Source: a virus
Lineage: Duplodnaviria > Caudoviricetes
Length of the DNA: 64,000 bases
Strand: one strand, 5' to 3'
IMG/VR virus record: IMGVR_UViG_3300020576_001330
Span: 451 to 64,450 of that record
Position numbers and translations under genes: made by a program. A model generated the notes under the pieces. It saw only the letters and a list, made by a program, of their open reading frames with translations. It was not told the DNA's origin and ran no database searches. The number at the start of each line of letters is the position of its first letter. Position 1 is the stretch's first letter. Shown piece by piece: positions 3,099 to 27,100 of the stretch.

Positions 3099-6000
3099 AC
3101 TTTTTAGTATATTTATATGTATTCTCACCAAAAATTTGATTATAAGTAGCTTCAGTACTATTCCAGGCACTTAATACAGGAAATAAATCACTCCATTCTT
3201 TAGCAGTTTTACTTCTTCCTTTTCTAAACCCCTTTTTATAAGTGTCTTTATCAGGATTAGTTATGTAATTAATTGAGGCATTGATGGCTTCCGTACCATC
3301 CATGATAGTTTTCATAATAGGAATAGGATCTTTAATAATTGCAAAGGATGAACTTGGGAATATAAAGAATGTTAAATCCTGATATACACGTTGTAATAAG
3401 TTTACAGTAAAGTTTACTTCGGGATCATCATCTCCACCACCTGCTAATGCATGGAATACCATACCTAGTCCAACTGCTAAAATAATCATTCTAAACTCAG
3501 CAATCTGAGCTCTCATATTTTCAACATCTAAATCAGATAACCCGATTTCTTTTAAGTACTTTTCATAAGATTCTACAGCATTAGCGGCTAAAGGATTTTT
3601 ACCAATATGCTCACCAATTAAAGGTAAGTTAGTCAATTTAGCTAAAGTTACTAAGGTAGTATTTAAAGTAAATTTACCAGCACCTTTTAAACCTTTAGCA
3701 GTTAATCCATCTCTGAGTGTAAGCATTCTACCTTTAGTTTCAAGGTACTTATTTTCAGAACCAAATCTTTCTTCAATTGCTCTTGGAAGCCAGGTTTTAA
3801 ACAACATAAAGATACGACCATAAAATTTACCCTTAAAAGGCATTGGTGTGTTATAATCACCCTGAGTTCTATGTCTAACTATATCAATACGATCTCTGAA
3901 TTGAGTTAGTTTAGATATATTTTGACCAGATTCATTTAAATGAACTAACTTATTCCATTCAGGAGCTTCTCCAAATTCAGAAGTTTTCCAGTCACCAAAT
4001 TCATCAAATGCCTCATATAGATTCTTTTCTTTACCTGCAAGATTCTTAATCTTTGTATTATGTAACTTAGCAAGTAAAATCTGATTAGCTATAAGATATT
4101 CACCAGATTCCTGAAGAAGGAATAGTACCTGTGGTATCTTTTTTAGATACTCATTCTTACCGTACTCCTTAGAGTCTTCAATGAAAGTTTCTTTGACTAC
4201 TCCAAATTTAAGAGCCAATGATCCTATTTTCATAGCTTCTTTATTGGTAAGTAAGTTAGCTGTACCAAACTTAAGCATGCTATTTCTGAGCTTAATCATA
4301 GCCCAATCCAAGTCTTTCGTGTTAAAATCCTTTTCACGAGCAGCATAAACATAGTTATTAATCATACCTATACTTACGTTGGCTAATGCGCTAAAAGGCT
4401 TTAAACCTATCAAATTAAGACGTGTAAAGTCAACTACAGCATCACTATACTTAATCCAAGAATGCTTCTTTAAAACAGGTTCTGGGCCTATTTTACCGCC
4501 CTCATACCATTCTTCATAATCCTTTCTTAACTGTTCTTTTTCTTCTTCTGTAACCTCACGCATAATACCAGAAGTATCATCTGTTCTTGTTTGACCAGTA
4601 AGTTCAGCATTTTCTCTAAATTTAAACGCTTCGATAGCATTTGTTAGCATGCCAGCAGTTTCAAGGGGATTCTTATTGAGATCTTTTCTGATTTTATCAG
4701 TTATTGGGTTTTTTTCAATCTTTTTAGTCTTTTCTAATTGATACCCAACAAGTTCCAATAAAGGCTGAATTTCAAGCTTATGCTCATAAGTAACAGCCAT
4801 TTCAAAGCCTTTTCTAAGCAAATCTACAGGATTTTTAAATTGTCCTTCCCTTTGTATTTCATATAAGCTTTTAGGCCTAATTAGAGGCTTAGGACGACCT
4901 TTTTCATCAGTAAGATTAGGTAGAGTCTCATTTAATTGATGATATGTTAAAGAGACTGTAAACCAGTCTAAAGCCGATTCTTTAATACCTTTTAAAATAT
5001 TACCCAATTGAAACTTAGACTCAGTCAAATCCAGCTTAGTTTGATGAATGACATTATCATACATTCCAAGCTCTGAAGTTAATGTTGGAGAAGTTTTGTC
5101 ATAAATTTCCTGAACTTTATCTACGTACCAGTTATATACTTCCAAATCTTTAACTTTCTCGAAATCAGGATTTTTATACTTTTCAAGAGGTGTTTTTACC
5201 AGATAAGCGTACCACTTATCTGCATAAATGTTAGTTCCACCTATATTAGATCGTGGTATTCCATCTTTAGTGATGGTAAATGATCCGTCAGGGTTTACCA
5301 CACCTTTATTTTCCCAAGAATACTGTTGTTTAAACTTTTCTACAGCATCTTGGTTTACTTCACCATCAAATGTGTTAGCTTCTTCAACTTCTTTTAAATG
5401 CTTTTCAAACAAAGCTTTACCTTCTGGAGTAAGTTGATAAGTATAGTTCTGCTCAAACCACTCACCAATCTCTCTTTTAGCATTCATCCAATCTTCTTTA
5501 GTAGAAGAATCATTGAGTTTTCTAAGTTTTCTATACACTTCTGCCTGGGCATTATAAAAGTCATGTGAGTACATGCTTATAAGGTGTCCTTTGGCATCAA
5601 AGATTTTTTTAAATTCTTCCTCACTGTATTTTTTGACCAAATCACGATACTCTCTATCAAATTGATTTACTTCCAAATCAGTTTGACGAGATCTCCAATT
5701 CATTACAGCAGCTGCAAACTGTAAGTGCGGAATATTAGTAGTTTCCAAACTCATAGTCATAGATTTAGCTCCTCCTAAATCAGCATAAGCCTTTTCAAGT
5801 TCTTCAGGAGTAATTTCTCTGCCATAAGCTTTAGATGCTTCTACTAATCTTTGCTTAATGAATTTATCAAATTTATCCTGAAGACGAATTGTTTCAGCAC
5901 GAACTTGAGTAATTTGTCTGTTAAAAGATTCATCTTCTGGAGCATTTAATAATAATTTATCAAATTCATTAGTAAAGTATAAAATCTTTTTTACATCTAC

Positions 6001-8356: not shown

Positions 8357-11300
8357 TTAACAAATTCTTTTTAAAATTTTACCTATTTCTTCTACTGAAT
8401 ATCCCATTCCTTCTAATAACTTAGAATTTATCTGATCATAAGAATAAGACTTACCATCTTTTAAAGTCATTGATGGAATTTCAGGTACAAAATCTTCACT
8501 TAATTCAACAATTGGAGAAGCTTGCTTATCTCTTACTTCAAATTCTTTTGGTAAAATTATATTATTAGGTAAATTTTTATTTTCTAACAATGATTTCATT
8601 TCTTGTTCAGAAAATCCTGCCATATTAGTACCAAATTTTGTAACTAAGAATTTTAATTCAGGATGATTATTGGCTTCTTGAATTAAAGCATTTATAGATT
8701 GTTCTATTCTATCTAATGAAACACTTCTTTTAGAACCAATAGATAATTTTGTTCCTGATATAGAAGCTGCTTTTGTAACAATACCAAAAGATTTACCTTC
8801 TGTTCCCTGCATTAATTTATCAACAATTCCATATTCTGACCATTTACCTTTTGTACCTACTGGTAATGCTGTATAATTAGAGGAAGTAGTACCTCTTTGA
8901 GCTAATCCAGCAGTTCCCCCACCATGTCCTCCTGCTGTATTTGCACCAAATACAAATACTTCATTTGGTTTTAAAGAAGTTATATTTTCTGGTGTATATT
9001 CTCTTATAGTTGGAGAAGCTTTAGCTTGAATATCATCTTTAAATTTTCCTAATTCTTTAGCTACTGTTGTATAAGATTCAACTAAAACTTTAATAAAATT
9101 ACTATTTATTCCTTTACCTTCCCACCTACTATTTTTTACTCCTACTGTATGTTCAGAAGCCAGAAGAAACTGTAATCCACCACGCTCATTAATTTCATTT
9201 ATTAATTCTGGATTTTTACGAAGTTTTTGAACTTGTAATTTATACATTAAATTCATATCATATTTTAATGCTTCTTCCGTGTTTAAATGTGGGGCTTTTA
9301 TTTTAGATGCATTTGCCTTATATAGACTCTCAACATCCATTAAATCTTTAGCTTGCCAATTAGGATTTGTTAATCTCTTGCCTAATGGATCAGTAGATCT
9401 TGTTGAAATGTTTATTCCTTGTATAGAGGAAGCTTTAGCTTGAGGTTTAACTTCAGCTTTTTCAAATTCTCTTTGAGCTTCAGCCATATCAGCATCCCAG
9501 ATTGTAGGAGGAATATTTTCCTGTTCTTTAAGAGCTTCCTGTTTAGCTACAATGTCTTTATGAGCTTTATCAAATGCTTCATTTTGAGCTGGAGTTAATG
9601 CATAAGGTTGTCTTTCAGAACTTCCATATGGAGTTTTAATTTCATACTTAGCAGAATTTTTATCCCATTTAACCTTCTTTAAAAGTACACCTTCAAGTTT
9701 TATCCATTTAGGCATCTTTAAATCACCGTTTTCATCAATGAATGGAGAGTTAATCTCATCTTGTGCATTCTTAGTTGATTTTGTAAAGGTAATAGTAGTA
9801 CGATCTAAACTTGTACCTTGATAATAATCAGCTGTACGAGATTTAAGTTTATTCTTATTAATACTATGTCTGATATAATTCTCAATAGTCATATCAATAA
9901 ACTCTCTTGTATTCATGCCTACAAGCTGTTTAAAAGCCTCCTCATTAACCTTATCCTCTGTAAGTAATCTATTTACTTCCTGTGAAGCTTTAGCTAATCC
10001 TAAGAACATTTCTGGAAGCATGTACTTAACAAAACTTCCATTTTTAAACATTAATGAATCTTTAAATACCAGGTAATTAAACATGTCCTGATATAACTCA
10101 GGATTCTTTTCAGCAATTCTACCACCAGAATTTAATAAATTATCCTGTGTAGTTTCAGTAAACTTAGTTCTTGAATCCATAGTTACCTTAGAGTAACCTG
10201 ACTTAGCATCATCTTCAAATCTTAATACTCTTAACAAATAGTTATTTGGATTCTCCTGTAAGTAATTAAGTAATTTACTTGACAATGAATTATTACCTTT
10301 TAACAACAAGCTTGAGAATTTTTGAGTATTCTCTCTTGTTCTTAAAGTACTAAGCTGTAATGAAGCTATAATAATCCTTTTAATCTCAGTTCTATCATCA
10401 GATGATAAATTCTTTCCAAATGAAAAAACAAAGGCATCAAAGATTTTTTTAGCTAGTTTAGTTTCAGATATATCATAATGAGTTAATGCATCTAACGCAT
10501 CTTTAACATAAGTAATATTCTGATTTAAAACTGGATTCTGTACAATCTTAGATAACATCCCTGGAATAGGTTCAGGCTCCGATGTTTTAGGTCTTAAAGC
10601 TTTTTCAGCTTCAAGTATCTTATGAAAATCTTCAATGTCAGTACCCAGTGATCTATTAGTACTTAAGATTCTGTTTACATGAGCACGAGTTTTATCTAAG
10701 GTCATTAATCTTTCATACAACTTTAAAGCTTTATACTGAGTGGTATAATACTCAGGAGTATAAAGTTTTTGCTGTTCAGCTTTTAAAGCTGCTTCCATTT
10801 CAGCATCTGTAATATTAAAGTCTTTTGGAAGATTTTTTTCTCCTAAAGCTTTTACAATTCTGCTTAATTCAGCATCAACAATAATACCTTCCTTTTCTTC
10901 TCCTTTTGTATAAGGTAATGCAGGATTAGTTAATCTTTGAGTTTTACCTAATTCTTTTGTAATAGTTTTAATAGAAGGTTGAATAAAGTATCTGTCAATA
11001 GTCTTCTCAGGAATATTCAAACCAAACATTAACATGACCTTATTTACAGTATTGAAATCATAGTTAAGGAACTTAGCAAATGGTTTCTTCATACCATCAA
11101 TGATACTACCCAAAGTCATTGAGATCTTATCAAATTTACTACGAGTATCTTCAGTACTTGCAAAGCTGTCATATGTATTACCATTGAAGTACAATTGATA
11201 ATCTTCGCTAACATTTAATCCAAGTTGTGTTACAAATTGAACAAAGCTACTACCATTTACAGTTGTACCTACAAGACCTTTACTTTGTACAGCAGCTTGA

Positions 11301-14300
11301 CGAGCATTTAAAATACTTAATGGTGAACCATTAATACGTGTATGCTCTACATCATTCTCTTTACCCAACTTAATACTTTCATCACTCTTTTCAGCTAAAG
11401 GCTCACTAAATGCCTGCTTTAATTCAGGGGAATTAAGAATTTTCCACTTTAAATCAAATAATTTATTAGTTAAAGCCTGCTTAGCATCAAGACCAGATTG
11501 AATTAATTTTTCAGGAGTATTTGGAAGATTGAATTTATTTAATACTTGCATAAGTACTCTACTTCTTATTCTTTTTAATTCATCTTCTAAATAAGTAGGA
11601 TGAACTAAAATCTTTTTAAAGTATAACTCATCTTCTTCATTAATTATATCGTCACCAAAAGATATATTTAATTTTCTATACTCAGGATCATTTTGTAATA
11701 ATTCATTATATTCAGCTTTAACATAAGTATTATTAGCTTTTAAATCTTTTATATACCCATCAAATTTTTCTTCAGGGGTACTTTCCTTACCATATTCAAT
11801 AACTTTACCAGTAGAATCTTTGAAATATGCCTTCTTATAAGCATATAAAGCATCTACGTCAAAGTCCATACCCATTAACCATACAAAGTCTGAAGGTGCT
11901 ATAATAGTATCTCCATATGCATCTGGAAGCAATTCTACAATCTTAGCTGTAGCTATACTGTGATAAGACTGGGAAGGTACACGGAATAATATAATTTGAT
12001 CACCTTTTTTAAATCCTCTTTCATCAGCCCATTTGCGAGATACAACTACTTCAGCAGGAATTGTAGTTCCTTCTTTATGTAACATACCTTGTAAAGGACG
12101 ATATTGACCAGTTTTAGGATCTTTAATATTGTATCCTTCAGATGACATAGCTGTAAACTTCACACCAGGTACTTTCTGTCTGAATACTTCTTTATAAGTA
12201 CTTAAGAATAAATCTACAAATTTAGTATGTAAGTGAGCCAAGTTAGAGTCATACTTCATTTTTTTACCTTCTGCTTCTAACATTTCAAGCATTTGGTTAT
12301 CAGGAGTACTCTCTTCTACAATACTACGGAATTTACGCAGCAATACTTCCATATCACCACGCTCACCATTTTGAATTAATACACTTTGTACAAAGTTAAA
12401 TACCTGTGTACGCATTTGTGAATTAATTCTATTGTGCTCATCAAGCAATTCTCTTGTGGCAGGATCTTTAATCTCACTACCTAAGATATTCTCAATCTGA
12501 TTAGATGCTGTAATCTTACCAGCTTCTTTAGAGTCATTCTCCTGTTGAAGCCTTCTGTAAATATTAGGTATATTGTGAATTTGATCTTTACTTACAGTAA
12601 TCTCATTTTTATGAATCGAATCTTTTAAATTAAGAGCATTATCAGGAAAGAATAACTTTGCAGCTGTTTGTGGTACTATATGAGTTATTTTTCTATCTTT
12701 AGTGTGTTTTAATAACTCCCACTTTTTAAACAGTTCTTCTTTACCTTCTAATGGAACAAATTTACCATTAACATATTTAGCACATAACTGTGGTGTAATA
12801 TAACATACAGCCATCTTGTTAAATACAGGTCTTCCATCAGCATCAAATCCAGCTACTACTTGTTTGCTTGGAATTAAATCAACTCCAGCTTCTTTAATTT
12901 CATCTAAAGTAGGCCAAACAGGAAATCCATTTTCAATAACATTACCCTGAAGTTTATTTACTACATCAATAATCTTATCGTTAAGTCTTCCTTGTCTTGC
13001 TAAATCATCAACATAAGAATCTAATCCAGAATAAACCTGAGCATCATCTGTTTTGATTTCATCCCAACCTTCTACATCTTTGTATTGAGGATCATAGCTT
13101 TTCTCTTTTGTATCTCTGTTAATATAAGCTACAGAACCTTTAACAAACACAACCTGGTGCATATCAGTAGGATTGTTATCTCTGGCATAACTAAATCCAG
13201 CTGCATTTACCATACTAACACGTTTGATATAATCATCAAAGTTCTTAGCATTAGCATAATCACCAGATATTAACTGGTTTATACCGATTGTAGTGAGCGT
13301 ATTGTTTAAAGTAAAATTATATAAGTACCCGTTAAGATCTCCATATAATTTAATTATATCTTTATTGATTTTTGTTTCAAGTTTGTTTTCAGTAAGTAAC
13401 TGTAAATGATCTTTAACTTCATTATCAACTGCAATCTTAATTAAATCAAGTACACGATCTTTTACACTTTCTAAATCAACTTTAGCTCCTGCCAGTACAG
13501 ACATTGCTTCTGTATCAGCTGTATTATTAAACATTGCAAAATGAATCCATACAGGCTTCTTTTCTTTATTATTATTAGCTAAGAAATCATTTCCATATAC
13601 ACCATTGATTCTGTTGTATTCCTGTTTAAACAAATTCCACAGATCAGTTTTACCTTGTTCTGTGAAAGATTTAGTAACAGAATCATAATATTTAAATACA
13701 GGAAGTACTCCCCACATTTGCTGTGATTTATCAGCGTACTGATTTAATACAACTGGAGCACTTTGAATACCATTGTACTTTTGAGAACTTTGATTCTGAA
13801 AAAGTGCATGCATATAAATCAATGCATCATATGTATTGATTCTACGTGCAGTAACTCCCCTATCATCTAATTTAAGATCATAAGCTAAACCAGTCTCAAA
13901 ATTATTCATTATATTGACAATAAGAGCAGGGTCTTTACTCAATAACGGGTTAAGTTCCCAATAAGCTTTATTGGCCTCAATGAATTTTTTAGTACTTTCT
14001 ACATCCTTAAATATCTCTTTAAACTTACGAGTTTGTACTCCTAATAATGAATCTAATCCATAAGAGTACCTCTTTTTACCTTCAGCATCAGTATAAGTCT
14101 TTTGGAAAGCATATGGATCAAAGTTGGCATTAGCATTAGCTATATCAGTAAGTAATCCCTCTTGTCTTTCAAATACATTTTTATCAAGATTCTGACGAAT
14201 AAATTCAAGGTCTTTTACGCCAATAATCTTTATATTACGATCTTTTAAAATATCTCTATTTTGAATGTCTTCTGGATTATTACTAAATGAAAACTTTAGA

Positions 14301-17300
14301 TATTCTTTCTCCAGGTTAATTCCAATATTGTTAAATACTTTGAATACTTTATTTTCTAAAGACTCATTAAAGTATAACCACTTTTTATCAGATTCAGTAA
14401 ATTCAGTTTGTCCTTTTAAGAACTTTTCCAACATTACAAAATCATTTTGAAGTAAACTTAAAAGAGATTTATCTTTTAATTTTACATCTCCAACAATCTT
14501 GTTGTAAATCTTTAAATAAGAATCTTTCCACTTACCATAAGTAGTCTCGTTTAAGTCTCTTTTATTTTCAATAAACAGCTCGTATTTATCTCCATTATCA
14601 CGAGCTTGCATGTACAGAATCTTGTTTAACTCAAATGCTTTTTTAAGCTGAGTTAAAATATTCTTACCATTAACTCCAACACCATCTGTATCCTGATCAT
14701 ATCCAGAAAGCTGTACTATTCTGTTATAGAAAGCATGAATCTGCTTATTATAAGCACTCATAGCCTTCATGGTACTCATAATATCTGACGGAGAAGTACT
14801 GGCAATGGATAAAGTAGGTAACATTCTGTTATACACTTCTCTCCAAGGTAATGCAGTTTGAACTTCACGTCCAAACATATCAAAATCTTTATATAAAGTA
14901 GTAGCTAAGAGCTTTTTAATTTGAGCTCCAACTCTGATACTAGGATCATACTCAGATGACATTGCATCAAAATTTAATTCAGAATCATCATCCGTAAAAG
15001 AATCAAAATCTTGAACATTCTCCTGATAACCTTGTTGCTTCAAAAATTTAGTTACCTCAGACAAAATCAAATCTTTATTCTGAACTAACTTATTATGAAA
15101 CTTTTTCATAGCTAACAAGTCTTCAGATACGTTGACTCGACTTTTAATGAATTCAATATTATGAGGTAAAGTTAAATCATAAGCAGCTGCATAAGCATTA
15201 AATGCATTTAATATCCTACTTCCAGTTTCTGATTTATTAAATTGACTATTAAGTACTCCAGCTGCAATTGTGTAAATAATATGATTAGATTCACTTGGAG
15301 AAGTATTCTTAATAATCTTGTAGTACTCTCCAGTACGAGTATCTTTGAATGAAGAGTTTTTAAAAGCTCCTGAATCAATTCTATTGAATAAATGGATAAT
15401 ACTCTGATTACCTAATATTGTGTTAATGAAGTTTCTAATCTTTTCAAATAAAATTCTCCATACACTTTTAACTTCTTTCTGTTTATTTTGCCAATCTGCA
15501 TACTTATCTGCAAGAGCTTCTTCATAAACTCTTGTTTCCATCTCTTTATCAGAGAGCTTATCATATTGGGAAGAAGTACTACGCAAATCTTCAATAGCCT
15601 TAGCTAACTGACTTGGTGTATAATTTAACTCAGATTTAATCTTATTTCTGTACAAGAATTGCTTTCTTGGAGATAATAAGTTATTAAACAAGGCATGAAA
15701 AGCTTCGTGGTAAGTATAAGTACGAGATACACCATTAGCTATATACAATGCTTTACCCAATACAGTACCTACACGAGTACCGTTGATAATTGCGTTGGAT
15801 ACTAATGTATTAATATCTTGTACTGTAAAAGCATCGCCAAATTTATCCTGTACAAACTCACGAGCTTGTTGTACAGTAAATGGATTAGATACATCCACTA
15901 AATTTATAACTTTATCAGAAGTTGTAGTACCTGTTCCAGTCTCTAATGCAGTTCTTCTTGCATCTTCTTCTGAAATACCAGCAGCTAATAATCTTTTGTA
16001 CATTTCTTCCTGCTCAGGAGTAAATGTTACAGGTTGAGCTGGTACATTTGGAGCAGCATTAGCTAGTATTTCATCAATACCTTCAGGTTCTACTACATCA
16101 GATACTCCAAAGAAATCATTGACTTCTTTAATTTGAGCTTCTGTTTGTGGATTTAAAGCAGCTAATTCAGCATCATATTTAGCCTTGATTTCAGGTATAA
16201 TATGCTCTTTAATATAATCATCATTAGATGGATAAGTCTTTACTACTTCACTTGTACCAATTCCTGTTGCTCTTGTAAAACTTTTTTTTGAAGCATCTAC
16301 AATATGTTGTGTATCCCAAGAACCGTTATTAGAAACTATTTGGTCATAATGTAAATCTTCACCATTGGCAGGTAATATATCAATACTGTCTAATTCTTCT
16401 TGTCTTCTTCTTTCTATATCAGCTTCAATGAGTTGTCTATGAGTTTTATTTTCAGGATTATTTAACTTTTTACCTTGATAATAAACACCATCTACTTTAA
16501 CTTCATATTCTGTATTACCTACTTTACCTATTTCTATATCAGCTTTTTTAGCTTCTATTGTATTAACAGGAGTAACTACAACTGGCTGATCTTTAAATTC
16601 AAAGTTTTCAGGATAGAATGTAAATTCAGCTCCCCATTTTTTAACAATTCCTTGCTTAGTACTTGAAGCTAATTGTTTTAATGGATTAGTTACTTTCTTT
16701 TCATCTGTATCTAAAGGTAAATTTTTACGTAAAGTAACATCGCCTACATAAACTTTAGTATCTCCAACAGTTAAGTGCAGTCCAGATAAGAATTTTTTAA
16801 AATCAGCAAAGTTAGTAAATGTATTTCTAACTTTAACTTCTTGTCTTGGATTATCTCTACCTCTTCCTTCATCTAATACAAGAACTACTTTTAATGAATA
16901 GTTTTCTTCATTACTTGCTTTAGCTACACGGAAGGTAATGTTAAATTTAGAATTACTTGATTTTACAAAGAAGTCAAGCTTTCTTAACATCTCATTTAAC
17001 TGAGGACGTAATGTTTCTAAATCTACATTTGTAGGTAAGTTATGTGCATCTGTTACAACAGTATTTAAAGCATCAATACTCTCCTGAGCTTCTGCTGATT
17101 TTAAATCAACTGTATCAGGGAATAATCTTACCCAAAGAATCTTTCCATTTGGAAACTTAGCCTCAACATAATATGAACCACTTTCTAAGCCATCTGGAGC
17201 AGTTTCAGGTGTAATACCATTAACATAGTACTCCTTACCTGCTAACTTGTAAATAACAGCTCTATTTTGAAACTCAGGAAACTTTGTGGCACTTATAGGA

Positions 17301-20300
17301 GTACCATTCCCAATCCAATCAAATTCTGCTTTTGGGGTTAGATTATAGGTATTATCAGGTAATGCAGATTTATCTCCATGTTGTTCTACATAGATTACTG
17401 CCGCATCATTGAATTCTTTTGCTCTTTTCCAGTTGTCTTGGAACTCTTTATATGTTTCAGGTGTAATTTCCTGATTGTTAAACTTGAATAACTGCTTAAA
17501 CAAGTCAATATGCATATCAGTAAAAACAACAGGCTTCCAATTGTTATGTTCATCTAAATATTCGTAAAAATCTGGGTTATAACCATGTGATAGTGCATAT
17601 ACATTTTTAGAATCCTGTGGATCAGTAATTTCTAAAATAATATGTACACCTTCTTTTCTCTTACCACGTAAACGAACTTGTTTACCAAGTGGTACAACAT
17701 TACCAAATTTAGTAGGTTTAACTTTGGTAGCTTTTAACTTAATGTATTTTTTGTATTCAGACATTGGTACTGTTCCAAGTATTTTGGAAAGTAACTCATC
17801 TGCAAAATGTGCTGGAAATGCTTTTGGGCCATGTTTTTGAAGTAAACTTTCTTTAGTAGCTCCTTCAGCTTTACCTCTTTCAGAGGTCATCATATCCTCT
17901 AGCTGTTCTTGTTCACGTTTTAAATTATATCTATGAATAGCATTAAAATGATTTACCCCAAATAATCCTTCAATAGTTCTGTTAGAAGGGTTAATTTTAT
18001 TAGTTTCATTCCAACCATCTTTAGTATTTAGTACTTCACCAGTTTTAGTAATGTAATCAATACTACCATCAGGTAATCTAGTTTGACTAACTACTTCAAC
18101 TTCTGCTGGATCAGCAAGTATTCCAAATCTATCAACCTTTTGAATAGTTTTACCTGTGAATTGTGTTGTGGGCTGCTGTTGTAAAATTTGAGCAGCAGGT
18201 TGTTTCTTCTCAACTTTTGGAATCTCTGTTAATTTATTTCCGTCTATTAAAATTTTAATAAGATCTGTTAAATATCTTAACTGTCTATCATATTTACTTC
18301 TTACTTCTTGCAATTCTAACAATCTTTCTTGCTGAGCTTCTAATGCTTGCTCTGAAATTTCTCCATGCTCTAAAGCATTTAAAATTTCCTCTTCTAAAAG
18401 GTCATGTTGCTTTTGAAGAGTTGCATAATTAACAAGTCTTTCTTTACCAGGTTTATTAATTATTCCTGATTTATCATAGTTAAGAAGCTCTCTAAGTTTA
18501 TCTGTATCAGGTTTAAATTTATTTTCTTTTTTAAACCTTTCAAGTAAATTAAATCTCTCTAGAATAACTTTTGTAATTTCCTTTAAATACGCTATAGATT
18601 TTTCTAAAAGTTGTTTAATATTAGAAATTATCTTTTCTATAGACGAAAGTTTCTTTTCGATTTTAGCTTTTTTGTCTTTTAACTCAGATAAAGTTAAAGT
18701 TTTTAAACTAGGATCATTTAAAAGAGAGTTATAATATTGTAACCTATTTTCCAGATCTTGCTTAATTACAGTTAATGTTTTAATAGTTTCTTTTAAATCT
18801 GTAATTTGATCTTGTAATTCTTTAGCCTGAGAAATTAAATTTTTATATTTCTCTCTTGCATTTTTTAAGTTTCTAATATCTTTTGAATTATTTCCATTCT
18901 CTTGTAATTTAGTTTGGTAATAATTAATACTTTTTAAAGCTCTATCAATTTTAGAATTTAAAGAGTCTAAATTAGAATCTAACTGAGCCTGTAAAATTTC
19001 AACAGATTTAGCATTTTGATTTATTTGATTTTTATGTTCTTCTATTTTAGCTTTTACTGTATCAGCAACAGCTTTAATTGCTTGAGTATTACTCTCACGA
19101 GTAATTAACTCTCCCATTATTTTTTCATAATCATCTTCACCTTCAGCATCTAGTTTTTCTTTATTTACTGCTGCCTCCTGTTTAACTTCATCTTTTGTTG
19201 ACTCCGCCTTAATTTTATTATTTAATTCATCTAAAGCTTTTTGTTTAGCTTCACTTTCTTTTAATTTCTCTTCTGAATGCTTTTTATAGTCATCTAAATT
19301 TTTTAATTTAAGAAGCTTGTTATAATTGTCTTGGTGTAGTTGTTTTCTAGCTTGTACTGGAATTAAATCTTGGTTGATTTTAAACAACTCAATCGGAGCT
19401 TCTTCAATAATATTTTTAGGCTCTTCTAAAGTTTTAAAGGTTTCTTTTAAAGGCTTTAATTGTTCTTTTAAAATTTCAATTTGCTTTTTATAATCATAAA
19501 TCAATGCTTTTTCAGGAGAATTTTTAATCTCATTTTCTAGAAAAGCAATACTCATCTCTTTAAACTTAATTTGATGTTCTAAATCTCTATAATTAAAGGT
19601 ATCTTGATCTTTAGAATTTAATCTAAGTTTTGTTTTTTGATCTTGTAAATCTTTTTCTTCGGTATTAGCTTTTGTTAATCCAATAATAGTATTAAAAAGA
19701 TCTTGTTTAGCTATACGTTTAGCAATTTTAGACTCTTTAGAATCAAAGAATCCTCCAAGAGTATCTATATAATCATTAACAGCTGCATATTTATGATATG
19801 CAGTTTTAATATTACTAATTTCTTTTTGTAAATCTTCTTCTGATAATAAAGGATTACCATTAATATCTTTTTGTTGACTTACAGATTTTAAACCCTCAAT
19901 TAAATGATGTACTGTATCTGTATCAAAAGCCTTTTGTAATACTTCTGTTTTTAATCTTAATAACTTATCATCCGCATGATCAAAAGGAGTACCAGTTAAT
20001 TCTTTGGTATATTTAGAATATGCTCTAAGATCTTTATAAATACCAATGGGAATACTTACAGCTCCGCCACCAAGAAGTGACAGCATTCCACCAGATTCTT
20101 CTGAGAACTGGAAATTGGGATCATGAGAATATCTACCATCTTCATTTCTTACTATACCAATTGGTGAATAGTTTATTGAAGACATTGTATCATAAGCATC
20201 AGTTAGAATAGATGAAATCAAACCTTGATTTTCATATAACCCTAAATTTAATGCGTGATCTTGTTGTCTTTGGGATGCTGCATATTGAAATCCTTCTTCA

Positions 20301-21829
20301 CCTTTTTCTTTTAAATAATTTGTGTAAAGTCTTCCAAATCTGCTAATATTTCTAGTTAATTTACTAGCATCAGTAAATGTCTCAATCCCTCTTTCCAGTC
20401 CTTTTAAAGGCTTGCTAAGTCCCGTAATTAAGTCTCCTAACTTATTTCCAGGCATTATAAGAGCTTCTACTATATCAGGTATAGCTAGAGCCATATTTTC
20501 ATTAAAGAGCTGATCTTTACCAACTCTGGCTTGCATACGAATCCTTCTTAAATCTTCTTCAGAAGGTTCTTGTCCAGGATGATATTTTTGCCAGTTTTCT
20601 AATAAAGTTTGTTGGTTTTGTTTAATAGCATCACCAACTTCTGAGTTTGATTCTATTCTTCTTGAATTAGTAATAAGTCCAAGTGCTGTAGTCAATGCTA
20701 CTCCAGCAGCTACCTTAGATGCTACAGGTTCTGGGGCTAATGCCCCTAAAGCAGCAGCAGCTAAATTTTGAAATACTTTTCCACCAAAAGTTCCAGCAAT
20801 TGACTGTCCCATCAGAGAAGCAGAACTTCCCCATACTTGAGGGTATGAATAAGTCAGTTTATCCCATAAATCAGCTTGAGAGCCTTGACCTTGCACTAAC
20901 CAATTTTTAATTTGATACTTTTTACTTACAGGCTCATTTTTAATTTCAGCTGTATTAGAATCAATATCTTTTTGATATTTTTGTACATTTGCAGAAGCTG
21001 TTTGAGCTAAATTATTTAACTCTTGCAGTTCTTGCATATATGTATTTTGATCAATAGTACCAGATTGTAATTTATAATCTAAATCACTTTTTTTATCTGG
21101 ATATTCATCTAATATTCTTTGGGCATCATCTTGTAAATTAAAGTCTGAGCTTTGCTGAGTTTGATCTATACCTTGTAAAAAACTATTTTTAATATTATCC
21201 CATTTGGTATTTAAAGCTCCTTGCTCTACCCAATCAGTATTTTCATCTGCAATTCCTTTTGTAGGATCTGGTAATACAGATGCATCATATATTCTATCAG
21301 TTTGATCTCCAAATAATTTTTGTTTTTCTTTTATTAAATCTGATACAGCGGAGTTGGAAAATTTTGATAAATTTTCTACATACTGTTTAGTTTGTAAAAA
21401 GTTTTCAGGACTTTGAATTTTAGCCATATTAGCTTTCCAATCTCCTCCCATAGCAATAGCTTTATCAACAGTATCAGGCCCAGCATTGTAAGCAGCTAAA
21501 GCCTTTTCCCAATCTTGATATTTATCAAACTGTTGCTTTAAATATTTAGTACCGCCTTGAATATTTTGATTAGCATCCCAAGGATCTACACCAAGTTCTT
21601 TTGCTGTATCAGGCATCAACTGCATTAATCCAATAGCTCCTGCCTTTGATACAATAGCTGGATTTCCACCAGACTCTTGTTTAATTACAGCTTTAACTAA
21701 ACTATTAGGTACACCATTAGTATAACCAGCTTCATCTCCCAAGGCAACTTGATTTTTTCCAAGTTCTTTAGGAGCTAAACCAAGTTCAGCCTTTTCTCGT
21801 TGTAAATTATTTACTATTTCGTTATTCAT
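8357..21829 (-). CDS. Virion RNA polymerase polyprotein, 4490 aa (crAss-like, phi14:2 gp66-type)
   Basis: Catalytic GMDFDVDAL at 11852-11866; N-terminal SLT lytic transglycosylase (QESGGNP, GLMQLMP, ALAAYNAGP); zincin HEAFH at 15695-15709 with downstream EEALAD; C-terminal NADAR-like and macrodomain-like modules. Confidence 0.92.
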   Translation of the reverse strand: MNNEIVNNLQREKAELGLAPKELGKNQVALGDEAGYTNGVPNSLVKAVIKQESGGNPAIVSKAGAIGLMQLMPDTAKELGVDPWDANQNIQGGTKYLKQQFDKYQDWEKALAAYNAGPDTVDKAIAMGGDWKANMAKIQSPENFLQTKQYVENLSKFSNSAVSDLIKEKQKLFGDQTDRIYDASVLPDPTKGIADENTDWVEQGALNTKWDNIKNSFLQGIDQTQQSSDFNLQDDAQRILDEYPDKKSDLDYKLQSGTIDQNTYMQELQELNNLAQTASANVQKYQKDIDSNTAEIKNEPVSKKYQIKNWLVQGQGSQADLWDKLTYSYPQVWGSSASLMGQSIAGTFGGKVFQNLAAAALGALAPEPVASKVAAGVALTTALGLITNSRRIESNSEVGDAIKQNQQTLLENWQKYHPGQEPSEEDLRRIRMQARVGKDQLFNENMALAIPDIVEALIMPGNKLGDLITGLSKPLKGLERGIETFTDASKLTRNISRFGRLYTNYLKEKGEEGFQYAASQRQQDHALNLGLYENQGLISSILTDAYDTMSSINYSPIGIVRNEDGRYSHDPNFQFSEESGGMLSLLGGGAVSIPIGIYKDLRAYSKYTKELTGTPFDHADDKLLRLKTEVLQKAFDTDTVHHLIEGLKSVSQQKDINGNPLLSEEDLQKEISNIKTAYHKYAAVNDYIDTLGGFFDSKESKIAKRIAKQDLFNTIIGLTKANTEEKDLQDQKTKLRLNSKDQDTFNYRDLEHQIKFKEMSIAFLENEIKNSPEKALIYDYKKQIEILKEQLKPLKETFKTLEEPKNIIEEAPIELFKINQDLIPVQARKQLHQDNYNKLLKLKNLDDYKKHSEEKLKESEAKQKALDELNNKIKAESTKDEVKQEAAVNKEKLDAEGEDDYEKIMGELITRESNTQAIKAVADTVKAKIEEHKNQINQNAKSVEILQAQLDSNLDSLNSKIDRALKSINYYQTKLQENGNNSKDIRNLKNAREKYKNLISQAKELQDQITDLKETIKTLTVIKQDLENRLQYYNSLLNDPSLKTLTLSELKDKKAKIEKKLSSIEKIISNIKQLLEKSIAYLKEITKVILERFNLLERFKKENKFKPDTDKLRELLNYDKSGIINKPGKERLVNYATLQKQHDLLEEEILNALEHGEISEQALEAQQERLLELQEVRSKYDRQLRYLTDLIKILIDGNKLTEIPKVEKKQPAAQILQQQPTTQFTGKTIQKVDRFGILADPAEVEVVSQTRLPDGSIDYITKTGEVLNTKDGWNETNKINPSNRTIEGLFGVNHFNAIHRYNLKREQEQLEDMMTSERGKAEGATKESLLQKHGPKAFPAHFADELLSKILGTVPMSEYKKYIKLKATKVKPTKFGNVVPLGKQVRLRGKRKEGVHIILEITDPQDSKNVYALSHGYNPDFYEYLDEHNNWKPVVFTDMHIDLFKQLFKFNNQEITPETYKEFQDNWKRAKEFNDAAVIYVEQHGDKSALPDNTYNLTPKAEFDWIGNGTPISATKFPEFQNRAVIYKLAGKEYYVNGITPETAPDGLESGSYYVEAKFPNGKILWVRLFPDTVDLKSAEAQESIDALNTVVTDAHNLPTNVDLETLRPQLNEMLRKLDFFVKSSNSKFNITFRVAKASNEENYSLKVVLVLDEGRGRDNPRQEVKVRNTFTNFADFKKFLSGLHLTVGDTKVYVGDVTLRKNLPLDTDEKKVTNPLKQLASSTKQGIVKKWGAEFTFYPENFEFKDQPVVVTPVNTIEAKKADIEIGKVGNTEYEVKVDGVYYQGKKLNNPENKTHRQLIEADIERRRQEELDSIDILPANGEDLHYDQIVSNNGSWDTQHIVDASKKSFTRATGIGTSEVVKTYPSNDDYIKEHIIPEIKAKYDAELAALNPQTEAQIKEVNDFFGVSDVVEPEGIDEILANAAPNVPAQPVTFTPEQEEMYKRLLAAGISEEDARRTALETGTGTTTSDKVINLVDVSNPFTVQQAREFVQDKFGDAFTVQDINTLVSNAIINGTRVGTVLGKALYIANGVSRTYTYHEAFHALFNNLLSPRKQFLYRNKIKSELNYTPSQLAKAIEDLRSTSSQYDKLSDKEMETRVYEEALADKYADWQNKQKEVKSVWRILFEKIRNFINTILGNQSIIHLFNRIDSGAFKNSSFKDTRTGEYYKIIKNTSPSESNHIIYTIAAGVLNSQFNKSETGSRILNAFNAYAAAYDLTLPHNIEFIKSRVNVSEDLLAMKKFHNKLVQNKDLILSEVTKFLKQQGYQENVQDFDSFTDDDSELNFDAMSSEYDPSIRVGAQIKKLLATTLYKDFDMFGREVQTALPWREVYNRMLPTLSIASTSPSDIMSTMKAMSAYNKQIHAFYNRIVQLSGYDQDTDGVGVNGKNILTQLKKAFELNKILYMQARDNGDKYELFIENKRDLNETTYGKWKDSYLKIYNKIVGDVKLKDKSLLSLLQNDFVMLEKFLKGQTEFTESDKKWLYFNESLENKVFKVFNNIGINLEKEYLKFSFSNNPEDIQNRDILKDRNIKIIGVKDLEFIRQNLDKNVFERQEGLLTDIANANANFDPYAFQKTYTDAEGKKRYSYGLDSLLGVQTRKFKEIFKDVESTKKFIEANKAYWELNPLLSKDPALIVNIMNNFETGLAYDLKLDDRGVTARRINTYDALIYMHALFQNQSSQKYNGIQSAPVVLNQYADKSQQMWGVLPVFKYYDSVTKSFTEQGKTDLWNLFKQEYNRINGVYGNDFLANNNKEKKPVWIHFAMFNNTADTEAMSVLAGAKVDLESVKDRVLDLIKIAVDNEVKDHLQLLTENKLETKINKDIIKLYGDLNGYLYNFTLNNTLTTIGINQLISGDYANAKNFDDYIKRVSMVNAAGFSYARDNNPTDMHQVVFVKGSVAYINRDTKEKSYDPQYKDVEGWDEIKTDDAQVYSGLDSYVDDLARQGRLNDKIIDVVNKLQGNVIENGFPVWPTLDEIKEAGVDLIPSKQVVAGFDADGRPVFNKMAVCYITPQLCAKYVNGKFVPLEGKEELFKKWELLKHTKDRKITHIVPQTAAKLFFPDNALNLKDSIHKNEITVSKDQIHNIPNIYRRLQQENDSKEAGKITASNQIENILGSEIKDPATRELLDEHNRINSQMRTQVFNFVQSVLIQNGERGDMEVLLRKFRSIVEESTPDNQMLEMLEAEGKKMKYDSNLAHLHTKFVDLFLSTYKEVFRQKVPGVKFTAMSSEGYNIKDPKTGQYRPLQGMLHKEGTTIPAEVVVSRKWADERGFKKGDQIILFRVPSQSYHSIATAKIVELLPDAYGDTIIAPSDFVWLMGMDFDVDALYAYKKAYFKDSTGKVIEYGKESTPEEKFDGYIKDLKANNTYVKAEYNELLQNDPEYRKLNISFGDDIINEEDELYFKKILVHPTYLEDELKRIRSRVLMQVLNKFNLPNTPEKLIQSGLDAKQALTNKLFDLKWKILNSPELKQAFSEPLAEKSDESIKLGKENDVEHTRINGSPLSILNARQAAVQSKGLVGTTVNGSSFVQFVTQLGLNVSEDYQLYFNGNTYDSFASTEDTRSKFDKISMTLGSIIDGMKKPFAKFLNYDFNTVNKVMLMFGLNIPEKTIDRYFIQPSIKTITKELGKTQRLTNPALPYTKGEEKEGIIVDAELSRIVKALGEKNLPKDFNITDAEMEAALKAEQQKLYTPEYYTTQYKALKLYERLMTLDKTRAHVNRILSTNRSLGTDIEDFHKILEAEKALRPKTSEPEPIPGMLSKIVQNPVLNQNITYVKDALDALTHYDISETKLAKKIFDAFVFSFGKNLSSDDRTEIKRIIIASLQLSTLRTRENTQKFSSLLLKGNNSLSSKLLNYLQENPNNYLLRVLRFEDDAKSGYSKVTMDSRTKFTETTQDNLLNSGGRIAEKNPELYQDMFNYLVFKDSLMFKNGSFVKYMLPEMFLGLAKASQEVNRLLTEDKVNEEAFKQLVGMNTREFIDMTIENYIRHSINKNKLKSRTADYYQGTSLDRTTITFTKSTKNAQDEINSPFIDENGDLKMPKWIKLEGVLLKKVKWDKNSAKYEIKTPYGSSERQPYALTPAQNEAFDKAHKDIVAKQEALKEQENIPPTIWDADMAEAQREFEKAEVKPQAKASSIQGINISTRSTDPLGKRLTNPNWQAKDLMDVESLYKANASKIKAPHLNTEEALKYDMNLMYKLQVQKLRKNPELINEINERGGLQFLLASEHTVGVKNSRWEGKGINSNFIKVLVESYTTVAKELGKFKDDIQAKASPTIREYTPENITSLKPNEVFVFGANTAGGHGGGTAGLAQRGTTSSNYTALPVGTKGKWSEYGIVDKLMQGTEGKSFGIVTKAASISGTKLSIGSKRSVSLDRIEQSINALIQEANNHPELKFLVTKFGTNMAGFSEQEMKSLLENKNLPNNIILPKEFEVRDKQASPIVELSEDFVPEIPSMTLKDGKSYSYDQINSKLLEGMGYSVEEIGKILKRIC

Positions 21830-24108: not shown

Positions 24109-27100
24109 TTATCTTCCTCTTTTTGAACGCATTATACGAGCATATTCTGGATAAGCCATTTCTAAAAATTCCTGATCTCTATTATAGTTCTGTTTGTTCT
24201 GTGAATACTTAGAAAGATCTCCAGCAGCTTGCATAAGATAATTTCTACGAGCATCTTTAGCTTGGAAATTAAACATATCAGATTGCCAGTCAATACCTCT
24301 ATTACCAGTTTCAATTTGAGAATTAAGTCCCTTAAATTGATTCTTAATGCCTGTATTAGCCTGATCTACATTGAATGAGTAATCACCCATTGCTTTAGCT
24401 CCTTGTGCAGCTATACTAGCTTGTCCAGCTCTTGAATACATTCCAGAGTTTCTTAATCCATATTGTGATCCAGCAATACCTCTACGAATAGGTTCAAAAT
24501 CCTTCTGCATTAAATCTGGAGTCATGTATTTAGTATAATATTTAGAAGCTTTAACTTTATCAGCTTTACTTAATCCTGCAACTGTATTAGCAATTACTGG
24601 AGCTAAATCCATCGCTGTATTAGCCCAGTTACCAGTTCTATTAGTTGGTGGAGGAGTACTGTTTCTATCAGATTCCCATCTTCCATAAGTAGTTCCAGTA
24701 TTATTCAAGTTTACATTAGGAGGAGTAGCAGCCATTGATCCATATCCTGGCAACCCATCATAACCTCTATATCCGCTATAAGCATCATTATTTGCAAACA
24801 TCTTTTGCCCGTAATTAGCCATTGGAGCTCCTGAATAAGCAACACTAGAACTAGGATCTAAACCAGCTCTTTGTGCATTATAAGCATTACCAGACATATA
24901 ATCAGCAGCAAATACACTGGGATCTGCTCCATAATCTGATAATTTTTTACTTCCAGTTCCATCACCTAAAATCCACTTACTTCCTCTTGAAGTAATAGCT
25001 CCACCACGCCTCATTTGATCCATTTCAGCATCAAGTGTTTCTAAATCACCACCATATTTCTTTATAGCTCTGCGAATAGCATTTCTTAATTTAGAATCTC
25101 TTTCATTGTTACGAGCAGTTAAATACTCTTCATTTTGCTGAATAGCATGATTTTTTAATTTATCTGTAGCTAGTTTCATTTGATCTCCATTGTTTCTTGT
25201 TGACAATGCCTTTGTATTTTTATCTAATCTTCTTGATATACTCATTTGAGTTTTATCTAATTCTGAACCTGGTTCATCTGTAATAACATATTCACCATCC
25301 AGTACTTTTTCATTTCCTTGAATTTCAGCATTCGGTGCATAATCCATACCACCTTGCTCATGTGAAGCCCCATAAGCATGCTCAATTCCATAACCTTCAT
25401 CATGCATTACCCCACCTTGGATTCTGCGAATATTACCACCTTGATCATATCTGCTTGTTACAACTCTTCCTTGCGGATCAATGTTTAATAATCCTCCATT
25501 AGCCATAAAGCCTGAATCTTGAAATCCTTCTGTATTTGTTAGTAAATCATTGTGGGCTTGGGTTCTTTTATCTTTTTTTGCTTTCATAAGACCATAAGTA
25601 AATGGAACTGCAAGAGAAAGAAGCTTTTCACCAGTATTAAATCTCTTATCATTTAATGCTCCTAATGCTCTTGATGGGTCTAATACTCCAGATGTAAAAG
25701 CTTGTCCTATAGCAGAGTTCCCTGCAATTTTAGTACCTATTTGTGATACTGCTGATATAGCAGCACCCCAAGGCCCAAATGAACCTATACCTTGTTGTAC
25801 AGCACTTGGTTTAGTAGGGTCTTCTATTTGTTGTACTCCTTGAGCTTGTCCCAAAGAACTAATAGTCCCCCCATATGGATGTTTAACAGGTAACAAGTTT
25901 GTATCTCTATTAGGATCACCTTGTTCTTTTAACCATCTTTTATGAGCATCAATCTTAGCTGAATCCAACTTTCCAGTCTTATCATAATCCTTCATTTGTT
26001 CTTCTTGATAATATGGACGTGCATCCATATATTTTGTTTGAACAAGTTTCTTAGTTGGAAGCGTACTTGGTACTCTTACTGTATCTTTAGGCATTTCTTG
26101 TGGTGTTTGTACTTGTTCAGACACTATCTTTTTTTGTTTTTTTACTTGGTTATTGATAGCCTGTGTGGTGTGTAATTCTTTTACAAGTGTTTGAGCTGGT
26201 ACTTGATCTTTTTGTAGTATTACTTGTTGTTTAGGAAATTCAAATTTTGGAATAACATCATATATACCATAGTCTGGATTTTCAAAATATTTTTTACCAG
26301 TCTCGTAGTTTAAAAATCCCTTTACTGATGGGTATACACAATAAGAATTAGGTCTAGAAAGAGTTTTTAAGTACTCTCTATATTTTTCAGGAATTGTCCA
26401 ATCTTTTACTAGATCTTCTTTAGTTTTTTTGTCTATACGTTGACTGTTTACATACCTATCATCTCCAATAACATTATATCCAGTTGGTGCGTTTTGTGCG
26501 TATTGTCTGTCACCAATAAACATAGCATCCCCATAACCTTCTCCCTTTATAGCAGCTTTTCCTGCTATATATGCAGCACCCATCTTAGAAGCTTTTCCTT
26601 TTTTTAAGTCTTCTTTTATTTCTTTAGCCGGAATAAAGTATTGAGAATATTCTGGTTTATATGAAAATCTTCCTCTTGTAGCTTGTAGCCCAGATAAAGT
26701 TGCTTTTTCTAAAGGATTAAGTCTATTTTCAAGCAGACTATCCATAGTATTAATTTCTGCTCGTAAATTTTTTTTAGACTTTTCAGTTTCTCTGTAAGAA
26801 AATAAAGCAGCACGTGAACTATCCCTGTATGCTTCTATTCTAGGATCGTTTGGGTCTTTAGTTATATAAGGAGCAATAGTTCCTCCTGTTGGAAAACTCA
26901 TTCCATTTCTTTGCAAAAATGGCCCACTTGTTACATGAGCATCATTAGCTTGATGAAATGCTTCCATGTTTGATGGTGTGTAATTTCTTTTCTTTATTTT
27001 ACCACCATGTTTATGAGTATCTTTTTGTAATACATAAGCACTTCCAGCAATTGGAGCTGTTTGCCACATGTTATTCATAAGATCTTTCATAGCTTTTGGA

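Follow-up and report, generated by a model that had tools for sequence, protein, structure and literature searches.

What do two small domains of ADP-ribose-processing type do at the very end of a giant phage RNA polymerase? The question is raised by a stretch of 64,000 nucleotides (positions 451 to 64,450 of the IMG/VR virus record IMGVR_UViG_3300020576_001330), in the following called the window, in which one minus-strand open reading frame (ORF) encodes a crAss-like virion RNA polymerase (vRNAP). A first-pass annotation, made from the letters alone, had placed an NADAR-like module (i) and a macrodomain-like module (ii) on the C-terminus of this polymerase and had seen in them a candidate eraser of ADP-ribose (ADPr) that is injected with the DNA. 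All motifs quoted there were found in place within this single ORF, and the suggested ranges of amino acids (aa) 4140-4260 and 4275-4435 match the hidden Markov model (HMM) envelopes 4136-4263 and 4279-4433. Models and profile comparisons give module (i) the NADAR fold and module (ii) the macrodomain fold, and we tentatively read both as erasers of ADPr from nucleic acid. The parts of the giant ORF that carry this argument are:

8357-21829, minus strand: giant ORF of 4490 aa, crAss-like polyvalent virion RNA polymerase protein (ORF list and translation)
10910-12352, minus strand: vRNAP catalytic region, aa ~3160-3640 (tblastn)
9041-9424, minus strand: module (i), minimal domain of predicted NADAR fold, aa 4136-4263 (AlphaFold2 model, VIA, hhalign)
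8531-8995, minus strand: module (ii), A1S_2505-type macrodomain, aa 4279-4433 (NF049995, phrog_2072, AlphaFold2 model)

The carrier was identified as a crAss-type vRNAP because aa 3160-3640 match phi14:2 g066 and the RNA polymerase (RNAP) subunits of crAssphages: in tblastn searches, aa ~3280-3640 matched phi14:2 g066, the "catalytic RNA polymerase subunit", with an E-value of 4e-7, and crAssphage RNAP subunits were matched with E-values down to 4e-9. DFDVD, an Asp-rich metal motif, lies at aa 3322 (11852-11866) inside this region. A megablast search of the giant gene against the phage collection gave zero matches, and phi14:2 gp66 was not among the PDB matches of the whole giant protein in phmmer. 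Judged by its sequence, the giant ORF is a crAss-type vRNAP fused to further parts, as had been claimed. Relatives of this polymerase were detected in virions by mass spectrometry, and gp47, gp49 and gp50, which are associated with the RNAP, are present in crAss001 virions (PMC10172136); by analogy, the giant polymerase protein is most likely packed into the phage particle.

Module (ii) is an A1S_2505-type macrodomain

Module (ii) starts with TPENITS at aa 4279 (8975-8995), followed by FVFGAN at aa 4292 and FLVTKFGT at aa 4394. It matched the NCBIfam model NF049995 (A1S_2505_Nterm) with 75.6 bits at a cut-off of 45 and phrog_2072 with an E-value of 1e-21, and in the ESM Atlas the clusters closest to it bear the name A1S_2505 (scores 0.93-0.95). 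A word-indexed search yielded 232 relatives, one of which is labelled O-acetyl-ADP-ribose deacetylase by JGI. By sequence, module (ii) is thus a member of the A1S_2505 family (NF049995; phrog_2072), with which it shares the invariant N, H, G, T and AG residues, and not of the DarG family. Most members of this family are unnamed standalone proteins of 125-170 aa, whereas module (ii) is a cassette in a structural or injected polyprotein; the term "non-structural" in the family name does not fit this copy.

The AlphaFold2 model of module (ii), built from an alignment of 43 sequences, had a mean predicted local distance difference test score (pLDDT) of 87.3. Nearly all top matches in Foldseek were macrodomains, with that of nsP3 from Venezuelan equine encephalitis virus in front (probability 0.99, TM-score 0.48-0.52) and Poa1p, TARG1 and BT1257 ranking after it. 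In VIA, the macrodomain of Mycobacterium tuberculosis DarG (5m3i) was tied first with a Z-score of 9.2 (125 aligned residues, root-mean-square deviation (rmsd) 3.1), and ~24 of the first 25 rows were macrodomains; the fold is common to TARG1/OARD1, DarG, Poa1p and the alphavirus nsP3 macrodomains over 125-136 residues (Z 8-9.2). On the strength of the model, module (ii) is a macrodomain fold in the TARG1/DarG neighbourhood, the group formed by DarG, TARG1, Poa1p and the alphavirus proteins, which agrees with the "A1S_2505-type, macrodomain-like" label of the first-pass annotation.

At the level of sequence the similarity to this group is below threshold: the best match of the family profile among PDB sequences was TARG1/OARD1 with an E-value of only 0.16. 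In this weak alignment the family motif G-C-G-x-A-G-F falls on G-C-G-L-D of TARG1, and Lys4353, which follows an invariant Thr, is aligned with the catalytic K84 of TARG1, whose equivalent in DarG is K80; an Asp at the position of TARG1 D125 is lacking. Near-invariant in the family are N4297, H4302, G4303, G4305 and T4352. Module (ii) contains two glycine-rich loops, GGHGGGTAG and then GTNMAGF, which may correspond to the ADPr-binding loops of the macrodomain group; a glycine-rich loop comes after the FVFG(S/A)N strand, and the second loop, in the family G(C/T)(G/N)xAGF, is the one that aligns with the GCGLD loop of TARG1 at this E-value. Lys4353 and the structural tie would fit a macrodomain of DarG2 type.

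Module (i) is a minimal domain of NADAR fold without the known ligand-binding block

In module (i) the motifs GINISTRS (aa 4138; 9395-9418), VESLYKA (4166), SEHTVG (4225), WEGKG (4236) and NFIKVL (4244) follow each other. A direct scan of the C-terminus of the giant ORF against PDB sequences gave no NADAR, Macro or DarG match, and the copy in the window did not match PF08719 (NADAR) or PF08010 (Phage_30_3) at E<=1; among 42 family members, PF08719 matched a single one (E 0.004). When 1.84 billion cluster representatives were searched in full with HMMER, 198 relatives came out at E<=1e-3, of which 45 reached E<=1e-30. Among them are giant proteins (1,000-6,300 aa) in which the place of the domain varies, as well as small proteins that stand alone. 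For both modules the matches lie well outside what chance would give.

The AlphaFold2 model (42-sequence alignment) reached a pLDDT of 91.5. Foldseek, which was positive for the macrodomain, returned nothing significant for this model and had YbiA at rank 7, but VIA was positive for both modules: in an exhaustive search of 48,161 chains, ranks 1-3 for module (i) were all NADAR structures, 8bau with a Z-score of 8.1 (116 aligned residues, rmsd 3.1), YbiA (2b3w) with 7.5 and 8bat with 5.8, and the next row had 4.5. The family profile matched YbiA (2b3w) among PDB sequences with an E-value of 0.009, and hhalign aligned the family with the YbiA-family profile over 89 columns (probability 96.5%, E 8e-10). 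An hhalign comparison with the single sequence of T4 gp30.3 gave a spurious 3% match and was replaced by that with the YbiA profile. The nearest ESM Atlas clusters belong to PF08010 (T4 gp30.3) and PF08719 (score 0.90), which we take as a lead only. Because of the top ranks in VIA and the matches to the YbiA profile, the NADAR/YbiA pattern noted earlier is right at the level of the superfamily: by its model, module (i) has the fold of the NADAR superfamily, a helical core with small beta hairpins at its sides, and shares it, along with homology at the profile level, with Escherichia coli YbiA, the DarG1 antitoxins and the phage AdfN proteins (T4 gp30.3, AdfN-Bas32, AdfN-Bas60).

The active site was compared with the NADAR residues given by Schuller et al. 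(PMC11543638). With YbiA-type NADARs, module (i) has in common the motif-1 Glu, the KF/KL helix, the E-H motif and the Trp of the WG motif. E4167 aligns with the motif-1 Glu (P. nicotianae E43, E. coli C7 E88, YbiA E48), which is kept in 138 of the 143 family domains, and W4236 with W133 (Trp in 137); the Lys of the KL/KF helix is kept in 139. E4226-H4227 were aligned by hhalign with E125-H126 of YbiA. The second acidic residue of NADARs is E125 in the YbiA type, Asp in the DarG1 type and His in T4-type phage NADARs; in the family it is Ser, Thr or Glu (48/46/31), and the next residue, His, is kept in 134 domains.

Apart from these residues, module (i) differs from characterised NADARs: it has only ~130 aa, carries Ala4174 at the position of the canonical motif-1 Lys (+7 from the Glu; K50 in P. 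nicotianae, K95 in E. coli C7, K55 in YbiA), has a Lys one turn earlier and lacks the block R66-E90. The motif-1 Lys (K50/K95) is essential for ADPr-guanine hydrolysis in NADARs (PMC11543638). In the family, Lys is found at +7 in 72 of the 143 domains. In the window copy, Lys4171 is present at +4 from Glu4167, one helical turn before the canonical position, and Lys or Arg at +4 or +7 is found in 136 domains; the most frequent residue pairs at (+4,+7) are (Q,K) 42, (K,A) 35, (K,K) 20 and (K,N) 18. This pattern suggests that the Lys is shifted by one helical turn in part of the family and may compensate for the canonical one. The block R66-E90 (~25 residues), which is invariant in YbiA, has no counterpart in module (i), leaving a gap of ~29 residues in the HMM alignment and likewise in the hhalign alignment; T4 gp30.3 (AdfN) retains it. 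Its equivalent in P. nicotianae (K75-R93) contacts the adenine, the proximal ribose and the pyrophosphate in the solved ADPr complex (PMC11543638). Of the putative active-site residues, the motif-1 Glu, the His and the Trp are present and the canonical Lys is replaced by Ala. Taken from the sequences, the conservation of residues points to an enzyme, whose substrate may differ from that of AdfN and DarG1. For both modules the ratio of nonsynonymous to synonymous substitution rates (dN/dS) was 0.12-0.19 between closer copies; both are under purifying selection.

The two domains are separately movable cassettes

The borders of the two domains are marked by short direct repeats, and the chain continues after the last of them:

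9429-9443, minus strand: joint 1, 15-nucleotide (nt) direct repeat encoding (P)QAKAS, upstream border of the NADAR cassette
9010-9029, minus strand: joint 2, encoding QAKASP; the second 15-nt copy (9015-9029) overlaps the first 12-nt copy (9010-9021)
8512-8523, minus strand: joint 3, second 12-nt copy encoding (K)QASP, downstream border of the macro cassette
8360-8521, minus strand: C-terminal tail after joint 3, aa 4437-4490 (54 residues), conserved in ortholog P0203 and covered in P0137

The exact 15-mer occurs twice in the window, 414 nt apart (0.02 copies expected), and extends to 42 nt at 76% identity; the exact 12-mer also occurs twice, 498 nt apart (0.04 expected). The order is joint, NADAR, joint, macro, joint, tail, with linkers of (Q)AKAS- or QASP-type at all three joints. 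An ortholog of 4281 aa, P0203, is 90-96% identical to the whole protein, macro and tail included, and lacks exactly aa 4134-4271, that is the NADAR cassette. As far as the sequence allows, the NADAR and macro domains are two in-frame, separately movable cassettes in the last 360 residues. The tail gave only a sub-threshold match to UBA_2 (E 0.16) and may be an anchoring or packaging element. As a widely shared DNA word, the 15-nt joint was discarded: it had 84 single matches in viral contigs, which are put down to chance because none adjoins an NADAR-like or macro domain. Shorter joint words were absent from the related loci.

Distribution of the pair among phage proteins

The vRNAP catalytic region was found by an iterated HMM in 39 of the 79 carriers of at least 700 aa, and in these carriers the NADAR-like domain lies mostly downstream of the vRNAP region and sometimes upstream. 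A macro is also present in 15 of 150 NADAR-like carriers; the two are adjacent, in both orders, and nested once. Such pairs include small proteins of 370-600 aa, some of which add YpsA/YAcAr SLOG or DUF4326 domains. Carriers with little other similarity in BLAST still agree in module (i) at 60-77% identity. Bearing on the survey of vRNAP C-termini for exchanged domains that the first-pass annotation had called for are the absence of the NADAR cassette from P0203 and the occurrence of the pair in either order.

In the nested case (L003:2959-3678; IMGVR_UViG_3300044961_000262), an 87%-identical copy of the macro cassette interrupts a degenerate NADAR-like domain after its W-E-x-G motif and before the last helix; in this host domain the Glu motif is gone and Asn replaces the conserved His. 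In two further giant proteins the cassettes are followed by other domains: the macro by an AAA_33 domain of P-loop kinase-type fold (L007:3031-4539), and NADAR-like plus macro by GNAT acetyltransferase and PIF1/SF1 helicase domains (L008:3022-6981). A relative in a reference Suoliviridae genome is the 4775-aa gene product of cr50_1 (MT774375.1 65825-80149 = L012:4826-19150, minus strand), annotated as "DNA helicase". It contains HEAFH, a vRNAP region at aa 3012-3361 (E 2e-48, own HMM) and an A1S_2505 macrodomain at aa 4025-4151, and the NADAR-like domain is absent; by sequence, the label understates the protein. Genes of Rhodobacter phages annotated as "ADP-ribosyltransferase" were considered as fusions of a writer and an eraser and ruled out: they encode standalone A1S_2505-type proteins of 122 aa, such as RcBigEagle gene 55 (L010:3926-4294), and ~10 sister phages have the same. 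This label is probably an annotation slip, the family fold being that of a macro eraser or reader and not of a transferase.

Architecture of the carrier and genome setting

Two further parts of the giant ORF lie upstream of the polymerase region:

21452-21733, minus strand: N-terminal SLT lytic transglycosylase domain, aa 33-126 (Pfam PF01464, E 2.5e-26)
15695-15709, minus strand: HEAFH zincin-type motif, aa 2041-2045 (read from the sequence)

The SLT domain matched SLT70 and a tape-measure lysin among PDB sequences. HEAFH, which is common to the giant ORF and the giant protein of cr50_1, would fit a protease role; no family match was obtained for its region. Together in one chain, vRNAP, SLT and HEAFH fit the architecture of "polyvalent proteins" (Iyer et al. 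2017, PMC5512222), which are likewise giant and multidomain, combine SLT, zincin-type and polymerase parts and are predicted to be injected. With the crAss-type vRNAPs (phi14:2 gp66; crAss001 gp47/gp49/gp50) the giant ORF shares the homologous catalytic region and the place of the gene after tail and cargo genes, but it adds SLT, a zincin-type motif, NADAR-like and macro in one chain. This chain is presumably about twice the size of phi14:2 gp66, if we take the size of gp66 from the first-pass annotation.

The source record is an IMG/VR virus contig of 64,450 bases with an estimated completeness of 66%, and the window is a strand-biased block of phage late genes. Besides the giant ORF it contains:

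55725-57719, minus strand: terminase
53232-55658, minus strand: portal, ~33% identity to Crassvirales portals, e.g. that of cr50_1
50508-51965, minus strand: major capsid
24109-28218, minus strand: large ORF of 1369 aa
21822-24059, minus strand: large ORF of 745 aa
3097-8355, minus strand: large ORF of 1752 aa

Several very large minus-strand ORFs come after the terminase, portal and major capsid genes, and the giant ORF lies downstream of these on the same strand. Its three large neighbours had zero Pfam or PHROG matches and are presumably cargo or RNAP-associated proteins. On the plus strand, a gene similar to phosphoribosyl pyrophosphate synthetase (726-1664; the "Adps-like" gene of the first-pass annotation) matched PF14572 and PF00156 weakly, yet over the cut-off; it adjoins a calcineurin-like phosphoesterase and a DUF3307 protein (13-726 and 2150-2566).

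What the two domains may do

The use that we favour, though we put its probability somewhat below one half, is the removal of ADPr from nucleic acid near the polymerase by both C-terminal domains after injection. Both cassettes would enter the cell as part of the polymerase, at the same time as the DNA or before it, and adducts set by host ADP-ribosyltransferases (ARTs) would be hydrolysed on the incoming single-stranded or opened template DNA and possibly on early RNA. The macrodomain would bind ADPr via its glycine-rich loops and cleave the ribosyl linkage, and the NADAR core (Glu4167, Lys4171, Glu4226-His4227, Trp4236) would cleave N-glycosidic ribosyl-base bonds. We infer here that the C-terminus of the giant ORF would be packaged, that the domains would be catalytic and that nucleic acid would be their substrate. 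Nucleic acid is preferred because the domains belong to the same chain as a DNA-bound enzyme of low copy number, because DarG and TARG1, erasers that act on macromolecules, are among the closest structural neighbours, because vRNAP-borne macro copies tend to keep the catalytic Lys (found at the position of Lys4353 in 6 of 9 large carriers versus 29 of 123 small proteins), and because all phage NADARs tested so far strip ADPr from guanine in DNA and counter DarTG1 (PMC11825919). DarT-type marks, which had been proposed as the target, are one of several possible targets. We consider it rather improbable that the two domains work as a single composite enzyme for injected, co-transcriptional repair with a base specificity undescribed so far; in that case the grip on ADPr missing from this NADAR clade would come from the macrodomain, the ribosyl-base bond would be cut by the NADAR core, and the pair on the virion polymerase would clear ADP-ribosylated bases from the single-stranded template during transcription.

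Several findings weigh against erasure of ADPr from nucleic acid. Module (i) had no match in Pfam, PHROG, NCBIfam or PADLOC models, Pfam Macro matched neither the window copy of module (ii) nor 43 members of its family at E<=0.1, and the DarG models of PADLOC matched neither module (module (ii) at E<=1). Ala4174 and the missing block R66-E90 also count here, as does the fact that P0203 does without the NADAR cassette, and at the position of Lys4353 the 132 macro family domains have Met in the majority (Met 75, Lys 35). Of the claim that "both eraser chemistries" are delivered, the folds stand and the chemistries are putative, given the loss of the block, the Ala at K50/K95 and the unconserved Lys of the macro family. 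To our knowledge, no DarT-type system is known for the host of this phage. Finally, Iyer et al. (2022) argue from gene context that phage Macro and NADAR proteins mostly act on soluble ADPr derivatives (PMC9503650), and the fusions of small relatives with SLOG and DUF4326 fit their view.

The main rival is indeed the degradation, at injection, of soluble immune signals derived from NAD or of toxic ADPr derivatives (cyclic ADPR isomers, His-ADPR, ADPr-1''-phosphate), which would blunt Thoeris-like, TIR- or SIR2-type defences. It is the published contextual prediction for phage Macro, NADAR, SLOG and Nudix, tandem NADAR-Macro included (PMC9503650), the small relatives that join macro and NADAR-like with YpsA/YAcAr SLOG and DUF4326 and the Prs-like gene 6 kb away in the window speak for it, and the missing block for binding adenine and pyrophosphate hints at a substrate different from a standard ADPr-base. 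The domains are, however, tethered to a polymerase of few copies per virion (~6 are suggested for crAss001, PMC10172136), to which a local target fits better than bulk removal of a signal; Thoeris-type signals arise after sensing, often late in infection, and DarG and TARG1, the closest structural neighbours, act on macromolecular adducts. On balance, we regard soluble targets as unlikely. Were RNA ends repaired or cleaned up instead, the macro would be a Poa1p-like ADP-ribose-1''-phosphate phosphatase working on by-products of Tpt1/KptA or would act on NAD-capped or ADP-ribosylated RNA, and early transcripts or tRNAs would be protected in this way. Poa1p ranks high among the structural matches of module (ii), the relatives with AAA_33 (L007) and with GNAT and SF1 helicase domains (L008) would suit such a task, and reversal of RNA ADP-ribosylation by such enzymes is documented (PMC11833690); since no ligase, Tpt1/KptA or 2H partner was seen in the window and the association with a kinase is seen in one relative only, we give this little credence.

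A lack of catalysis in one or both domains would make them modules that bind ADPr or NAD or serve as scaffolds, regulating or anchoring the polymerase, or would leave the NADAR-like cassette as dispensable baggage. The missing canonical Lys and ligand-binding block, the 90-96% identical ortholog P0203 without the cassette and the NADAR-like scaffold of L003, which lost its Glu motif and His and hosts an inserted macro, speak for this; but Glu, His, Trp and a Lys are near-invariant over 143 copies, module (i) keeps 60-77% identity across carriers that are otherwise little alike by BLAST, and dN/dS is well under 1, which makes non-catalytic domains a slim prospect. Proteins as the target, namely the vRNAP itself, host RNAP or other proteins modified by ARTs of host or phage, would suit the high structural ranks of the macrodomains of TARG1 type and of viral nsP3 type, which are protein de-ADP-ribosylases, and T4 is annotated to inject an ART, Alt, that targets host RNAP (PMC9503650). 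No ART domain was found, however, in the neighbouring cargo genes of the window, and characterised NADARs act on N-glycosidic base adducts and not on proteins (PMC11543638, PMC11825919), so that we see only a small chance for this.

Discussion

How much of this is new? The term "undescribed system" used in the first-pass annotation was too strong, since Iyer et al. (2022) already predicted Macro, NADAR and Nudix to be virion-packaged and noted tandem NADAR-Macro proteins in viruses (PMC9503650). [quoted passage not shown] Among the polyvalent proteins of the 2017 paper (PMC5512222) neither domain is listed, and neither paper mentions crAss-like phages or describes repeat-bracketed cassettes or the minimal NADAR clade. 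New are the carrier protein, the minimal NADAR clade without the ligand-binding block, the natural variant lacking the NADAR cassette, the short exact direct repeats that bracket both cassettes and the recurrence of the pair in either order. A literature search found no paper that combines Crassvirales with a macrodomain. AdfN, a phage NADAR able to erase DarT1 marks on phage DNA (PMC11825919), is a standalone early gene product, whereas module (i) is fused inside a virion polymerase. In the replicase polyproteins of RNA viruses, ADPr-processing domains are likewise covalently joined to the viral polymerase (PMC9503650), but in animal RNA viruses Macro and NADAR largely exclude each other, and the polymerase as such does not enter the particle, unlike the giant ORF with both domains in tandem on a DNA-dependent virion polymerase.

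The minimal NADAR clade may have a substrate specificity outside that of the characterised NADARs, and the repeat-bracketed cassettes, together with the variant lacking one, mark the C-termini of vRNAPs as a place to seek further injected effectors. Crassvirales are among the most abundant phages known, and their means of passing host defences are little known. By analogy with packaged polymerases, the phage probably brings finished tools against the ADP-ribose-based defences of bacteria into the cell by injection. If the domains are active and injected, counter-defence would be carried as protein, ready before any gene expression, and this would offer a testable route into ADP-ribose-based immunity in Bacteroidota.

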